Positions 32,553-40,275 of a stretch of DNA of 64,000 nucleotides are shown piece after piece (positions within the stretch are counted from its first letter, which is position 1; every line of letters begins with the position of its first letter). The translations under genes and the position numbers were made by a program. The notes under the pieces are model-generated. The model saw nothing but the letters and a program-made list of their open reading frames with translations. It ran no database searches and was not told the DNA's origin. The stretch comes from Lachnospiraceae bacterium (GTDB lineage Bacteria; Bacillota; Clostridia; Lachnospirales; Lachnospiraceae): contig WRLH01000017.1 of the NCBI GenBank assembly GCA_009777715.1, positions 2,191 to 66,190 on the forward strand, in the 5' to 3' direction.

Positions 32553-33773
32553 TTACTCCCCCAGCACCTTAAGGACAAGCTCCGCGATTTTCTGATGCCC
32601 CAGCGGATTCGGGTGAATGATGTCAAAGCTTAAATTCATCTTAGCAAGGTCAAGATAATAATTCATCAGCTCGCTTAAAGCTTCCATGTCAGCAAAGATT
32701 AAGTCAACGTCAGCGATCAAATAACCATAATTTTGCTCTGTAAAATTTTTTTGCTCTGTAAAATTTTTTTGCTCTGTAAAATTTTTTTGCTCTGTAAAAT
32801 TTTTTTGCTCTGCAAAATGATGCCCTGCAAAAATAATTTCATTAATTGCCTGTGTGTATGCCCCGGCTTGCCCGGCCAGATCAAGCTCTAACCCTAGCAC
32901 CGCTTCGGGAATTGGGTTGTAAAGCGTGTTGACAACGAGGGTTGCGCTGGGGGCATTCTCCTTAAGCCATGCGATAATTTCTGAAAACTCGGCCGCAAAA
33001 TCAGCGATTCCCTCTTCCATCTCGGCGGTCAATTCTTCGGGCAAAGGGCCTGCTAAAACCGCCAGCGGATTATTGGCGTTAAGCTCGTTCATGCGGGCAA
33101 AAATTTCCATTGAATCACCAAAAATTAAGGTTGCCCTTTGCAAAAATTCCCCGATTCTAAGTAAGTCAGACAAAGAAAAATTCTCCGATATGCCTTGAAG
33201 TTCAGCATTCAGCCCCTCAAATTCCCCGGCCACGCCCATGGCGTCAATCGCAATCGTGCCAACATCGGCAATCATGTCCGTGATGGCCTGGAAATCCGGA
33301 AGATAACTTATCATGGGCTTAAGGATATTGTTTCCGCCGATATTAAGGGAAATAATCCGCGCATTATTAATGGCATTAAGTTCATCTGCGTTCAAGCTAG
33401 AAAGCTGTTCCAGAAGCATTCCGGTTGTTAGCCCGGTTGCGCTAAAATTCTCGTAACGGTTCACGTCGCCTAATTCACTAAGCCGCTCAAAGACCAAATC
33501 CGGGTATCGCTCTTCTAAGGAAACGCCGTACCCGGCCGGGATTGAATCACCCAGCGCGATAAAAAAAAGCGGCTCGGGCTCTGGCTCTGGTTCTGGCTCT
33601 ACCTGCGCTTCCTCAAGGGTCAAAAAATCAAACGCACCGCTTCCCTCTTGCTGGCCCAGATTTAAGTTTTGCCCCTCATTATTTTTCTTAAGCAGCACGG
33701 CAATAATAACACCTGTTATTAAAAGGCACAAGATGAGGAATAAGATGATGACTTGATAAGTTGTTTTTTTCAT
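32553..33773 (-). CDS. Membrane-anchored SGNH/GDSL-family hydrolase
   Basis: 406 aa. Has an N-terminal TM helix, block I FIALGDSIPAGYG, block III GGNN and a C-terminal HPNPLGH. It contains an internal (EQKNFT)n repeat. Confidence 0.75.
   Translation of the reverse strand: MKKTTYQVIILFLILCLLITGVIIAVLLKKNNEGQNLNLGQQEGSGAFDFLTLEEAQVEPEPEPEPEPLFFIALGDSIPAGYGVSLEERYPDLVFERLSELGDVNRYENFSATGLTTGMLLEQLSSLNADELNAINNARIISLNIGGNNILKPMISYLPDFQAITDMIADVGTIAIDAMGVAGEFEGLNAELQGISENFSLSDLLRIGEFLQRATLIFGDSMEIFARMNELNANNPLAVLAGPLPEELTAEMEEGIADFAAEFSEIIAWLKENAPSATLVVNTLYNPIPEAVLGLELDLAGQAGAYTQAINEIIFAGHHFAEQKNFTEQKNFTEQKNFTEQKNFTEQNYGYLIADVDLIFADMEALSELMNYYLDLAKMNLSFDIIHPNPLGHQKIAELVLKVLGE
32733..32818 (-). 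repeat. In-frame 18-bp tandem repeat x4.7 (TTGCTCTGTAAAATTTTT) inside the SGNH hydrolase gene
   Basis: Units are at 32733, 32751, 32769 and 32787, with a partial unit at 32805. It encodes FTEQKNFTEQKNFTEQKNFTEQKNFTEQN. Confidence 0.9.
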
Positions 33774-35721: not shown

Positions 35722-37721
35722 TCCTCAATCTCCCATAAATAAGCGGCCGACACATACGCGGTCGGTATACTGCTAGTATAATTAATCGCTGCCCAGCCAT
35801 TGCTTATCCCGGTCACCCTGACGATGTCCCCGGCGCGTAAAGTGCCGACAACCCTGCCATTCATGCCCGGCGCGTTCCGGACAAACAAGCGCGAAGCCGG
35901 GCTTATGTTAACAGCATATGCCGTCACCTGACCAAGGCTTACTTCTGTTTCCAAAGGCCTGACAGGTCCGCTAAGATGGTTAAGGTACATGACTGCCAGC
36001 CATGTCCCGGTATGGGCAAGCACCCACTCGCCATCAGGGCTAAATTCGATTATCTCAACAACCGTCCCCCTTGCCAATCTGCCGACCAGCGGGAAATGAG
36101 TTCCCGGCCCGCTTCTTTCATTTAAAAAATTCGCATTGACAGTATATAAAGACTTGGCTGGCGTTGGTGGCTCTGGCTTTTTACTCACTTCCTGCGTAAC
36201 TATTATATTTGCCACGTTTGACCGATACCGCACCGCTCCGCCAATCAAACTGCCCGATCCGCGGAAACCGTTTGTCCAGCTCTCTATCACGCCGTGATTC
36301 CTGACCGTGCCGCCATTATAAAGTGTTACTCCGTTGGGGATGTTAAGGACCGAAGTCCCCGGTATATTAAGCGTATAACCCTCCGCAATGATCAAATTTT
36401 CACTTAGCGTCACATTGCCATAAACCGTTGCCTTATCATCTTCAAACAAGATTCCCCGTGAACCGGGGGCGGCAATTAATGGGGAAAATATATCAAATGA
36501 AGAAAGATCAGAAAGTACCGCTGATGACGCATATATCATCAGGTTGTCTTTTATGATCAGGCTTCCTGCTGTCACAATGCCGCCCGTTTGATCACTGCCT
36601 GCTCCGCCTGTGATCTGCCCCACCGGGCCGTTTCCGGAGAATGTAATAATGCTTGCAGCTCCACCACTTGTAACAATCCCTCTTTCGCCGCCGCTAATTG
36701 CCCCTGTCGTACCCGAAATAGTGATGTTCCGGCCGGTAATTCCGCTCGATTCGGTTCCGCTAACCGACCAGGCTTCGCAAAAATTGACAACACCCCCCCC
36801 CGCCAATGCCCAAATTCCATTGCCACCGCCGGAAATGTTTCCGATCGTGCCGCCAATTGTGACGTTCATGGCCAAAATGCCGTTAATTGTAGCGGAAATG
36901 CTTTCTACTTCCCCGCCAATGGTGATATTGCCGTTATTAGCCCAAATGCCATGGGCAGGAGGGCCTAAGTCGAAAATGGTAATGCCGCTTATCGCCCCGG
37001 TTGATCCTAAGATGGTGACATTACCAAGATAGGCTTCAATTGCACTCGCTATCCCCGAAATATTCCCCGTCCTGCCCTCAATGGTAACGCTTTGATTGGC
37101 TAAAATTCCGTTTCTATCCGTCCCGGTAATATTGCCAACGTCTCCGGAGATAATAATATTGCCGGCCGCCGACCTAATGCCAGTATTACCGCTAATAGCC
37201 AAAACCGTGCCGGAGATTATGATATCGTTAACCGCGTAAATACCGGTGCCGCCTGTTGCGCCTGTTGCTGAAATACTGCCGATGCTTCCATCGATTGTCA
37301 CATTCCCAAAAGCCTCAAGTCCGCTCATGGATAATTTTGACTCAATAACAATATCCTCACCTTGGCCGCGGATAATGGCGTCTTCATACAGGACTAGCGC
37401 AGGATAATTAACCTCGCTGGTAATCTTCGTGCCCGGGGAAAGGGTAATGTCTTTGGCGTGCGTAACTACGACCGGGCGGCCGCCACTATCGCCGGCAAGG
37501 AGAATTGCGTCCGGGGTAGCTATCATGATGATATTTCCCCCGGCACCAGAATCTCCGTGGATAAAAAAGCCTTCGCCAACATAACCGTCCGGCAAAGCCG
37601 CCAGTGCCGTCAGGTCAAACACAGTGGGCATGGGTGCCGGACTGGCGTATGCCGCTTTTGGGATTAGTAAGGCAAACGCTAGGGCTAGCAATGCCAATAA
37701 TGGGTAAAATCGTTTCTTCAT
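35697..37721 (-). CDS. Secreted beta-helix-repeat protein with two C-terminal SH3b domains (paralogue P1)
   Basis: 674 aa. Has a signal peptide (...AAYA/SPAP) and roughly 20-residue periodic G.I.I.G..G.I.G...GI repeats. A PEPPTPAK linker is followed by two SH3b-like modules (YTVNANFLNERSGPG...; VNISPASRLFVRNAPGMNG...). Confidence 0.7.
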   Translation of the reverse strand: MKKRFYPLLALLALAFALLIPKAAYASPAPMPTVFDLTALAALPDGYVGEGFFIHGDSGAGGNIIMIATPDAILLAGDSGGRPVVVTHAKDITLSPGTKITSEVNYPALVLYEDAIIRGQGEDIVIESKLSMSGLEAFGNVTIDGSIGSISATGATGGTGIYAVNDIIISGTVLAISGNTGIRSAAGNIIISGDVGNITGTDRNGILANQSVTIEGRTGNISGIASAIEAYLGNVTILGSTGAISGITIFDLGPPAHGIWANNGNITIGGEVESISATINGILAMNVTIGGTIGNISGGGNGIWALAGGGVVNFCEAWSVSGTESSGITGRNITISGTTGAISGGERGIVTSGGAASIITFSGNGPVGQITGGAGSDQTGGIVTAGSLIIKDNLMIYASSAVLSDLSSFDIFSPLIAAPGSRGILFEDDKATVYGNVTLSENLIIAEGYTLNIPGTSVLNIPNGVTLYNGGTVRNHGVIESWTNGFRGSGSLIGGAVRYRSNVANIIVTQEVSKKPEPPTPAKSLYTVNANFLNERSGPGTHFPLVGRLARGTVVEIIEFSPDGEWVLAHTGTWLAVMYLNHLSGPVRPLETEVSLGQVTAYAVNISPASRLFVRNAPGMNGRVVGTLRAGDIVRVTGISNGWAAINYTSSIPTAYVSAAYLWEIEEIAARRPQ

Positions 37722-37742: not shown

Positions 37743-37820
37743 GATTGCGGGTCAAGCCCGCAATGACGTAAAAGGGTCAAGCACGTAAAATAAGGTCATT
37801 GCGGCCTCCGAGCCGCAATC
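37743..37820. repeat. REP pair: REP(+) 37743-37767 and REP(-) 37795-37820, between P1 and P2
   Basis: Same arrangement and flanks (TCTCCTATG.GTTTATAGATTGCGGG) as the cluster at 35592-35721. Confidence 0.9.
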
Positions 37821-37827
37821 TTGAAAT

Positions 37828-40158
37828 CTAATTCTGCCGCAAATACTGCGCCGACACATAAGCGGTCGGTATGCCGCTGGTATAATTAATCGTCGCCCAG
37901 CCATTGCTTAACCCGGTCACCCTGACAATGTCCCCGGCGCGTAAAGTGCCGACTATCCGTCCGTTCATGCCCGGCGCGTTCCGGACAAACAGGCGCGAGG
38001 CCGGGCTTATATTAACGGCATATGCCATTACGCGGCCTGGGCTTGCTTCTGTTTCTAATGGCCTGACAGGGCCGCTAAGATGGTTAAGGTACATTAATGA
38101 CAGCCACGTCCCGGTATGGGCAAGCACCCAATCGCCATCAGGGCTAAATTCGATTATCTCTACAACCGTCCCCCTTGCCAATCTGCCGACTAGTGGGAAA
38201 TGAGTCCCCGGCCCGCTTCTTTCATTTAAAAAAGTAGCATTGACTGTATATAGAGACTTGGCTGGCGTTGGTGGATCTGGCTGTTCAGCCACTTCTGCTT
38301 GGGCTGCTGTATTTGGCACATTTGACCGATAACGCACTGGTGTGCCAATCAAAGTGCCGCTTCCACCAAAACCGCCGATCCGGCTTTCGATCACGCCATG
38401 ATTAATAATCGTCCCATTATTCGTTAATGTAATCCAGTTGGGAATCGTTAAAACGCTTCCTTGCGGTATGGTCAGCGTCTGGTATTCCCCAATCGTTAGG
38501 CTGTGCTTTAGCGTCACATTGCCGTAGACTGTGCATTCGTTATGGCTAAGCAAGATCCCTTGTGAACCAGGGGCCGGAAAGCTAGGGACTTCGCCGCTTA
38601 TTGAAGAGTCCCATGTCCAAACTGACGACGCATAAACAACGCGGCTGTCTTTTAGCACGAGGTCTCCGTACACGCTATAAATGCCGCCATCCCCCCCCCC
38701 GATCTGCCCGGTCGTGCCGTTTCCGGAAATGATGACATCGCCAGAACGTACGGCAATGCCTTTGCCGTCAGTTCCGCCATTTATCGCGCCGGTTGTCCCA
38801 GAGATAAGGACCCCGCCACTGTCTGAATTAATGCCGCCCAGGCCGCCATAAATGCTCCCCGTCGTCCCGGAAATAGTGACTCCAAGAGTTGCAACAAGGC
38901 CTCCACCGGAATCTCCGCCGCTAATCGCGCCGGTAGTCCCGGAGATTGTAATATCCCCCGCTCCTGCGCGGATGCCGTTAATTGTTCCTTGTATTCTCTC
39001 TGTCCTGCCAGCGATGGTGACATCTCCTGATTGTGTAATAATTCCATTAAAGGCACCGTAAATGTTCCCGGTCTGGCCCAGGATGGTGATATTGCCGTTA
39101 TTAGCTATAATGCCGCTCCCGCTGGGGCCCATGCCGCCAATATCGCCGAACGTCCCGGTTAGCGTAACGCCATTTACTGCGCCGATGGCGTGATTTCCAT
39201 GGCCGTAGATGTTAACGTCGCTGCCATCACCCCTTACAACTGCTTCGTGGTTAAGCCTTAGGGCCGGTTCAGTCGTCGAATCGCTCATAATCTTTGTCCC
39301 GGCCGCCAAGGTTATGTCTGTCGCATAAGTAATGACGACCGAGCGGCCGCCGCTATCGCCGGTCAGGATAATCGGCACGTTGTTTTCGGTAATGATAATG
39401 TTATTAAGGCTAATCATCCAGCTTGGGCCGGCAGCATTGTCAGGCGCAGCTGACAGTTCATCAAGGTCAAAAGTCATCGGGGGAGCGGCTGTCCATGTCG
39501 CCGTATACCACCGATGGCCAAAGGATCCAACCGGGATATGGACGCTCATCGTTGGTTCTGAAAGCCCTGTCCCCGTCCAGCCGGCAAAGGTAAAGTTTTG
39601 CTTGGTCGGGTTATTTAAGGTAATCGACTGATGATCCATAAAGCTTCCATAAATCGAAAACTGGACTGGGTTAGGGGTTAATGGGTTGACTGTCCCGCCG
39701 TCAAGGTCATAGAATATATCGTAAAGCACAGCACCCCACTCCGCTTGGACCGATATGTCGGAAGTAACAACGGTGTCAGCATCAAACGGCTCGATGCCTG
39801 TACCCGGATTATATAACCAGCCGTGGAAATAAAAACCGTCTCGCTCCGGGTCAGCCGGAAACCTCGTCCCTACTGTCTCGCCGTCAGCTACCGAGATGAC
39901 GATATTACCCGGATTAGGGGTGTAACCGTGGAAAAAAGTGACCGTGTGAGTGCCGGAGGCCCAGACGTTAAGCGTAAATGCCAGCATTAGCGTTAGCGTC
40001 AGAGCCAGTGTCAGCACCAGCCTCACCAGCACTGCACCAGCGTTAGCGTTAGCACTGGCGTTAGGGCCTGCGTTAGCACTGGCGTTAGCCCCTGCGTTAG
40101 CACTGGCGTTAGGGCTAAAGATTTTAGGATTTGGGGGGAAATTTGCTTTTGGTTTCAT
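37828..40158 (-). CDS. Secreted protein: low-complexity N-terminus, two Listeria-Bacteroides-type repeats, beta-helix repeats, two C-terminal SH3b domains (paralogue P2)
   Basis: 776 aa. HTVTFF...DGFYFHGW... and YDIFYDLDGG...FTFAGWTG resemble Flg_new-type repeats. The passenger and C-terminal modules are homologous to P1 and P3. Confidence 0.7.
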   Translation of the reverse strand: MKPKANFPPNPKIFSPNASANAGANASANAGPNASANANAGAVLVRLVLTLALTLTLMLAFTLNVWASGTHTVTFFHGYTPNPGNIVISVADGETVGTRFPADPERDGFYFHGWLYNPGTGIEPFDADTVVTSDISVQAEWGAVLYDIFYDLDGGTVNPLTPNPVQFSIYGSFMDHQSITLNNPTKQNFTFAGWTGTGLSEPTMSVHIPVGSFGHRWYTATWTAAPPMTFDLDELSAAPDNAAGPSWMISLNNIIITENNVPIILTGDSGGRSVVITYATDITLAAGTKIMSDSTTEPALRLNHEAVVRGDGSDVNIYGHGNHAIGAVNGVTLTGTFGDIGGMGPSGSGIIANNGNITILGQTGNIYGAFNGIITQSGDVTIAGRTERIQGTINGIRAGAGDITISGTTGAISGGDSGGGLVATLGVTISGTTGSIYGGLGGINSDSGGVLISGTTGAINGGTDGKGIAVRSGDVIISGNGTTGQIGGGDGGIYSVYGDLVLKDSRVVYASSVWTWDSSISGEVPSFPAPGSQGILLSHNECTVYGNVTLKHSLTIGEYQTLTIPQGSVLTIPNWITLTNNGTIINHGVIESRIGGFGGSGTLIGTPVRYRSNVPNTAAQAEVAEQPDPPTPAKSLYTVNATFLNERSGPGTHFPLVGRLARGTVVEIIEFSPDGDWVLAHTGTWLSLMYLNHLSGPVRPLETEASPGRVMAYAVNISPASRLFVRNAPGMNGRIVGTLRAGDIVRVTGLSNGWATINYTSGIPTAYVSAQYLRQN

Positions 40159-40275
40159 TTTTCTCCTTTTTTATATGTTTGGCAAAATAAAGGCTTTCAA
40201 CTTAAGCATTTATCTGCTATACTATTAATGATACCACAATCTCCCCTCATCAGCAAACCAAATCAAGGAGCAATT

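Follow-up and report, generated by a model that had tools for sequence, protein, structure and literature searches.

Can a run of ten guanines in the middle of a reading frame decide whether an uncultured gut bacterium displays one of its surface proteins, or is it a by-product of codon use that the cell tolerates? The question is posed by a 64,000-nucleotide stretch of DNA from a Lachnospiraceae bacterium (hereafter the window: C17:2191-66190 of genome G000, a 3.1-Mb, 64-contig metagenome-type assembly with 42.9% G+C), in which three paralogous genes for putative surface proteins, P1, P2 and P3, lie near one another and P2 carries the run. A preliminary description of this DNA had proposed that individual members of the family are expressed stochastically, in ON and OFF states. 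We take slippage-driven ON/OFF (contingency) switching of P2, a mechanism of a known kind, to be the best reading of the locus, and put its probability at about one half. The tract, its frame and the effect of a one-G change are read directly from the DNA; that slippage is frequent enough to be useful in a mismatch-repair-proficient host, and that selection keeps the run, we infer.

The G10 tract and the consequence of a slip

Ten consecutive C on the plus strand at 38691-38700 are, as the preliminary description stated, ten G on the minus strand, within the reading frame of P2 (37828-40158, minus strand, 776 residues). The coding strand reads ATC GGG GGG GGG GAT, that is, I486, G487, G488, G489 and D490 in the local peptide GQIGGGDGG, so that the run fills codons 487-489 and supplies the first base of the GAT at codon 490. 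A search cut-off of 6 has been used for homopolymer tracts of this sort (PMC5084427), and an uninterrupted run of 6-8 or more G/C in a reading frame, a length that makes for hypermutability, is present here as the G10 inside the open reading frame (ORF) 37828-40158. Within the window, the only runs of at least eight are this one and a G9 in P1 (36793-36801, minus strand), 1.9 kb away; P3 (42311-44890, minus strand) has no G/C run longer than six. In these particulars, too, the preliminary description was accurate.

What does a change in length do to P2? With G11 or G8 the frame meets a TAG at 38675-38677 and the product has 493-494 residues, and with G9 or G12 it meets a TAA at 38652-38654 and the product has 501-502 residues (both stops on the minus strand). 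The gain or loss of one G thus brings a stop 5-12 codons on, costs about 280 of the 776 residues (36%) and abolishes the full-length product, and any frameshift at the tract removes the final turns of the predicted solenoid described below, the linker behind it and both SH3b domains. Length changes of three bases add or remove one Gly and keep the frame.

In the switch that we propose, the G10 would be a slippage-prone tract that acts as a translational phase-variation switch, with the sequenced G10 state as ON. During replication, the nascent or the template strand would mispair within the run, and one G would be gained or lost. The shifted frame would then end at a stop 5-12 codons later, in a product of about 494-501 residues that lacks the last solenoid turns and the SH3b anchors; P2 would no longer be displayed, and a second slip would restore the frame. 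With the G9 of P1 at another site, the neighbouring paralogues could be switched independently of each other, and the population would be mixed for surface display.

The layout of the protein suggests what such a slip would take away. Behind a signal peptide, Pfam places a pair of Flg_new (Listeria-Bacteroides) repeats close to the N-terminus and a pair of SH3_3 domains at the C-terminus; it matches no family to the Gly-rich middle part (about residues 225-610, here called the passenger), after which a Pro-rich linker leads to the SH3_3 domains. AlphaFold, working from a shallow alignment, predicts the middle part as a regular all-beta solenoid, with a predicted local distance difference test score (pLDDT) above 90 at residues 230-470 and of 68-86 from there up to residue 610. 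A fold search of this model against the PDB returned no significant relative (all E-values above 0.5), and the long, non-significant matches were all beta-helices, among them EtpA, Ag43, pertactin, PfbA and tailspikes. The C-terminal tandem SH3_3 (SH3b) module (37831-38260, minus strand), in which SH3_3 matches two stretches, best at residues 721-773, is near-identical in P1, P2 and P3. An autotransporter or Pmp-type adhesin was considered and rejected, as the C-terminus consists of two SH3_3 domains and Pfam finds no autotransporter family in the protein.

Searches with the full-length protein are dominated by matches to the Flg_new repeats, and the likeness of 40 relatives to P2 is confined to the SH3b and Flg_new parts. 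The passenger itself has as its sequence relatives only P1, P3 and a few proteins from other metagenome-assembled genomes (MAGs) labelled Oscillospiraceae, which carry SLH wall anchors where P2 has SH3b; these homologues outside the genome are distant, and none has a G/C run longer than 6. A signal peptide, Flg_new repeats, SH3_3 domains, a predicted solenoid and SLH-anchored homologues together describe a surface-exposed or envelope product, and P2 is a secreted, probably wall-bound protein with a beta-solenoid passenger.

Might a slip release P2 from the wall instead of silencing it? The product of about 494-501 residues would still have its signal peptide, both Flg_new repeats and the greater part of the solenoid, and could be secreted and not wall-bound. 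About 260 of the roughly 385 passenger residues precede the run, the linker and the SH3_3 domains follow it, the P1 run is mid-gene too, and late shifts that alter a protein without abolishing it have been proposed under the name 'C-terminal phase variation' (PMC2823697). The cut would, however, fall inside the predicted solenoid: the model places the G10 in a solenoid turn, about 120 residues ahead of the solenoid's end (strands to about residue 610, pLDDT 68-80), and a protein broken off there, without its last turns or any cap, may misfold and be degraded. We therefore hold an anchored-to-released switch to be rather unlikely. As for the class of 'C-terminal phase variation' (Snyder et al. 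2010, PMC2823697), P2 was not placed in it, its tract lying at 63% of the coding sequence.

A further way in which the run might act, without any change in the gene, is at the RNA level, where transcriptional slippage or ribosomal frameshifting would turn out a fixed truncated or recoded fraction from an invariant gene. The productive cases that are known occur mostly at A or T runs. Long homopolymers can make RNA polymerase slip, and poly(A) transcript heterogeneity is cited in PMC2831843, but both shifted frames of P2 end within 5-12 codons and reach no alternative domain, which makes an RNA-level role highly improbable. An intramolecular G-quadruplex was set aside without a test as hardly credible, the G10 being single with no further G-runs nearby.

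Is the length of ten itself real? A homopolymer miscall, or the poly-G of two-colour Illumina sequencing, has to be considered in a metagenome-type assembly of 64 contigs and in a genus in which several of the long runs lie at or near contig ends. The P2 run, however, is interior to its contig, 25 kb from the end. Its frame continues uninterrupted through the G10 into the C-terminal module common to P1 and P3, which is homologous in frame, so that the tract must measure 10 bases, or 10 plus or minus a multiple of three. Moreover, a second assembly of the same organism (ENA ERZ27257348, made with MEGAHIT) has P2 with the identical G10 inside a 27.8-kb contig, k141_195608. Given two assemblies and an open frame, the length is not an assembly slip, and the homopolymer artefact against which the preliminary description had advised a check can be given hardly any weight. 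The second assembly also points to a majority tract length in P2 that is stable at 10.

Elsewhere, the two assemblies differ by one single-nucleotide polymorphism (37769), a 36-nucleotide tandem-repeat difference (32731-32766) and a 33-nucleotide indel (C15:21608-21640). At the tandem repeat, the window holds two more copies of an 18-nucleotide unit (TTTTGCTCTGTAAAATTT) than the ENA contig does. Their behaviour at other long runs is mixed. Contig k141_195608 ends 2 nucleotides before the P1 G9 (window 36802-36804), another ENA contig (L034) terminates at the very last G of the G12 in a GT2 glycosyltransferase gene, and the run of nine C in a DUF6056 gene is assembled through at the same length; for rapZ and lysS, the comparison with the second assembly has no exact product on record. 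Contig ends at runs would fit disagreement among reads over run length; poor read quality after poly-G would give them too, and they are only suggestive. P1 is broken again in the second assembly, inside its SH3b module (start of k141_254125, window 35850-35952), with P3-like bases at the contig end, which indicates paralogue collapse.

Codon choice at the run and in the paralogues

Do the protein or the codon habits of the genome call for ten G in a row? The genome encodes 386 Gly-Gly-Gly tripeptides; GGC serves as the first codon in 77% of them and as the second in 81%, as against 42% overall, and GGG takes these places in just 14.5% and 9%, as against 23% overall. Within P2, all 12 of the other Gly runs begin with GGC or GGT. 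At the position of G487, P1, P3 and two homologues from other MAGs have T, S, S or F; this first Gly is not conserved, and the protein thus does not need the run. At P2, then, the run is dictated neither by the protein sequence nor by normal codon use.

The abundance of long runs as a class can be gauged in several ways. A plain shuffle of the window is not impressive, with 5 overlapping matches to runs of 8 against a mean of 2.4. Across the genome, G/C runs of 5, 6, 7 and 8 bases number 2016, 362, 67 and 11, a fall of about 0.18-fold per added base; the decay then flattens, to 6, 5, 0 and 1 for lengths 9, 10, 11 and 12, and 12 runs of at least nine are seen where about 2.4 would be extrapolated. 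We also shuffled synonymous codons in such a way that all proteins and each gene's codon usage are kept, the gene set for codon statistics being a long-ORF approximation (2379 long ORFs, no gene-finder). Against this background, runs of 6, 7 and 8 fall 1.4- to 4.4-fold short of expectation (328 vs 444, 53 vs 116 and 7 vs 31), and coding runs of at least nine are not depleted (9 vs 10.1), their total being that of random codon use. Long runs are no commoner than careless codon use would make them, yet they escape an avoidance that rises steeply with length.

The match to random codon choice is also the starting point of the most serious alternative, in which the run would be no more than a by-product that a young accessory gene tolerates, without selection for switching. 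Three Gly codons would have drifted to GGG, or an in-frame slip would have expanded a run that was already long; slips would happen occasionally and the frameshifted cells would be lost, the run being recent and P2 dispensable. We regard this as possible, if doubtful. The steep avoidance sits awkwardly with it, for neutral drift with purifying selection should remove the longest runs hardest, and it is the runs of 6-8 that are strongly avoided and the long ones that are not.

The paralogues bear on the same choice. P1 (35697-37721, minus strand, 674 residues) has the passenger and SH3b layout of P2 without the Flg_new repeats, and its G9 is read GCG GGG GGG GGT around codons 307-310. The two runs occupy different columns of the paralogue alignment: at the site of the P2 tract the DNA is ACA GGC GGA in P1 and TCC GGA ACG in P3, and at the site of the P1 tract it is AGT GGC GGG GTC in P2. 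A shared conserved GGG motif as the source of both runs was rejected on these grounds. When synonymous codons are shuffled in P1 and P2, a mean of 0.06 runs of at least nine results, and in 100 shuffles the two genes never have one together, which, with the runs at different sites, also tells against a by-product. The preliminary description was fair in arguing that independent tracts in two of three paralogues strengthen the case. Its broader claim, that family members go ON and OFF stochastically, has circumstantial support in the truncation that a slip would cause, in the codon habits and in the company that the run keeps; the length variation that would go with it has not been seen, and the two assemblies agree on G10.

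Around the gene, an AGGAG ribosome-binding site (40163-40167, minus strand) lies 4 nucleotides ahead of the P2 ATG (40158-40156), and a terminator-like hairpin with a T-rich tail (37798-37819, minus strand) follows directly after the P2 stop, so that P2 is probably transcribed separately from P1. The n-region of the P2 signal peptide (window 40030-40120) is unusually long, with a degenerate ASANAG repeat (SPNASANAGANASANAGPNASANANAG) ahead of the hydrophobic core. A run of six C lies at codons 7-9, in the same signal-peptide region (window 40030-40120).

Long runs across the genome and the genus

If the P2 tract is a switch, is it alone? Twelve runs of at least nine occur in the genome, those of P1 and P2 included, and most of them lie in envelope or glycan genes. 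A GT2+GtrA glycosyltransferase gene (C15:22910-24040, L121) has a G12 at codons 10-13, within an N-terminal extension that is missing from its sole homologue in the genus (46% identical, in genome G007). Others are the nine C in the gene for a DUF6056/GT_STM0557_N membrane protein, a G10 in the signal peptide of a GH10 protein of more than 1157 residues (C32:3351-3360), a long run at the 3′ end of an N6/N4 DNA methylase gene, a G10 located 7 nucleotides upstream of an ATG, and a run at a contig end. At a further locus, a GTG start with a GAGGGG ribosome-binding site is followed by a G10 (C8:97294-97303) in a frame that stops after 12 codons; G11 would join the start to a downstream ORF of 154 residues, and as the DNA reads the locus is possibly in an OFF state.

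One more run is in the S-adenosylmethionine (SAM) methyltransferase gene just downstream of lysS (C13:34324-35093, L116/L120). The gene is frameshifted exactly at a G9 (C13:34490-34498), with the motif-I part (VLDVGCGQG) and the remainder in different frames. Joined across the run, the protein matches the whole Methyltransf_25/11 domain (Methyltransf_25 over 1-97 of 97, scoring 64 bits where the C-terminal piece by itself scores 39). The split gene is apparently either in its OFF phase or the result of a consensus error. No orthologue was found in the genus, and the lysS neighbourhoods in 80 other genomes do not contain the methyltransferase. LysS itself is matched best, among the named genomes scanned, by a MAG labelled Acetatifactor sp., at 73% identity.

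The pattern extends beyond this organism. Runs of at least nine are present in all 8 other species of the genus and in 17 of 30 other genera of the family. In one sister species (G001), whose genome measures 2.3 Mb, the G10-G13 runs number about 13; the 11 that were examined include one each in a YfhO gene, a gene containing PglD_N and the signal peptide of a lipoprotein. Two paralogous genes for multi-pass membrane proteins in this species are each split exactly at a run (L017, G11 at 1001-1011; L019, G10 at 1001-1010), at a homologous position (…KNGGGG and …FSGGG). In this genome and the sister species alike, most long runs belong to envelope or glycan genes, with several located at 5′ ends or in signal peptides, which speaks against a by-product. 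Taken together, twelve runs, the split methyltransferase and the two split sister-genome genes form a set of such loci of which some are in an OFF frame, consensus error being possible for the latter. In genome G007, a G28 (C3:9698-9725, L029) that lies about 40 nucleotides past a GroEL-like gene and 93 nucleotides from the contig end may have no biological meaning and instead reflect a poly-G artefact of sequencing.

The P2 tract is built like the classic contingency tracts found inside genes, and the distribution of long runs in the genome and across the genus makes slippage switching its likeliest explanation. A bolder version, which we consider improbable, would see a genus-wide 'phasome' of poly-G/C tracts in accessory envelope genes, with P1 and P2 toggling between wall-bound and released forms rather than on and off; its gene classes may include glycosyltransferases, methyltransferases, YfhO/DUF6056 membrane proteins, secreted glycosidases and beta-solenoid wall proteins.

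A number of findings weigh against switching, and most of them speak for a tolerated by-product. First, the abundance of coding runs of at least nine is matched by random synonymous choice, as described above. Second, similar runs lie in genes of a housekeeping type, namely ten C encoding PPP in rapZ (C13:55217-55226) and a G9 encoding GGG in a GATase_7 (PurF-like) gene (C16:47563-47571), where they are tolerated without an obvious need for switching. Third, mismatch repair is intact. MutS and MutL have long open frames in this genome and are present in 8 of 9 genomes of the genus, the ninth being 53% complete; slips should thus be partly corrected, and loss of mismatch repair as the cause of the long runs was rejected, every reasonably complete member having both proteins. 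Fourth, the run is mid-gene, at 63% of the coding sequence, and classic translational switches lie near the 5′ end (PMC2831843, PMC2823697). Fifth, length variation is not seen between the deposited genome and the second assembly, two assemblies in all. A comparison of tract length across strains or orthologues found no other strain and no P2 orthologue in the collections searched; a passenger query returned no related locus from metagenome contigs and genome contigs, and an exact-flank pattern with 7-13 bases in place of the run had no match among metagenome contigs. P1, P2 and most of the other tract genes have no orthologues in sister species, as would suit young accessory genes. Finally, the frameshifts that MAGs show at runs could stem from errors in sequencing or in the consensus.

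Slippage switches elsewhere and what P2 would add

Slippage switches are textbook matter for a few pathogens. To our knowledge, they are barely documented in anaerobic gut Firmicutes, where invertible promoters and shufflons are the usual explanation for a variable surface. Were P2, P1 and the rest of the tract genes to switch, stochastic variation would arise in the cell surface and glycan coat of symbionts of this lineage, with phages, protists or host factors as possible drivers, and a single MAG consensus would hide that surface diversity. A gene that is split at a homopolymer in a MAG, as the methyltransferase is here, should not by default be labelled a pseudogene or put down to sequencing error. 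Should the run be a tolerated codon run, the finding would be ordinary.

How does P2 compare with systems that are known to switch? The poly-G/C loci of Neisseria, Campylobacter and Helicobacter, such as hmbR/hpuA and the surface glycans of Campylobacter (PMC3786947, PMC5084427, PMC8355987), likewise have a run of at least 8 G/C in the frame of a surface or envelope gene, and there as well a one-base change leads to a premature stop. Those genomes, like the present one, hold several such loci, many of them in glycosyltransferase, methyltransferase and surface genes. In Neisseria, intragenic G tracts switch surface structures in a host with mismatch repair (PMC5084427), and this organism, like Neisseria, has MutS and MutL. 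The differences are in position, host and proof: the tracts in these genera are near the 5′ end and that of P2 is mid-gene; their hosts are Gram-negative pathogens and ours is an uncultured spore-forming Clostridia gut symbiont; and they have been proven by length variation in reads and strains and by phenotype, whereas for P2 there are two assemblies, both with G10. The 'C-terminal phase variation' of Helicobacter canadensis (PMC2823697) resembles P2 in that the homopolymer comes late enough for a protein still to be made after a shift. There the shift changes a few C-terminal residues, whereas in P2 it removes about 280 (36%).

Chlamydial Pmps share with P2 a repeat-rich passenger, which in them is beta-helical. 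The pmp families, like P1-P3, are sets of paralogous surface proteins of which only some carry a long coding poly-G, and of two sequencing efforts one gave their runs in frame and the other frameshifted (PMC3323650). Pmps, however, are Gram-negative autotransporters with a C-terminal beta-barrel, whereas P2 has SH3b wall-binding domains and no barrel, and sequence homology between P2 and the Pmps was not detected.

Another comparison is with the sortase-dependent pilus clusters of Bifidobacterium breve UCC2003, a Gram-positive gut commensal in which an intragenic G tract of about 9-11 switches a surface structure (PMC9187656). The tract genes there encode pilus subunits and P2 a beta-solenoid/SH3b protein; the reference state is OFF, with slippage turning it ON, whereas P2 is ON as sequenced; and the B. 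breve case has been demonstrated by maximum-depth sequencing and in mice (PMC9187656). In B. breve, as we propose for P2, slippage decides whether the structure is produced, and equivalent tracts recur across its genus (PMC9187656), as the long runs do here.

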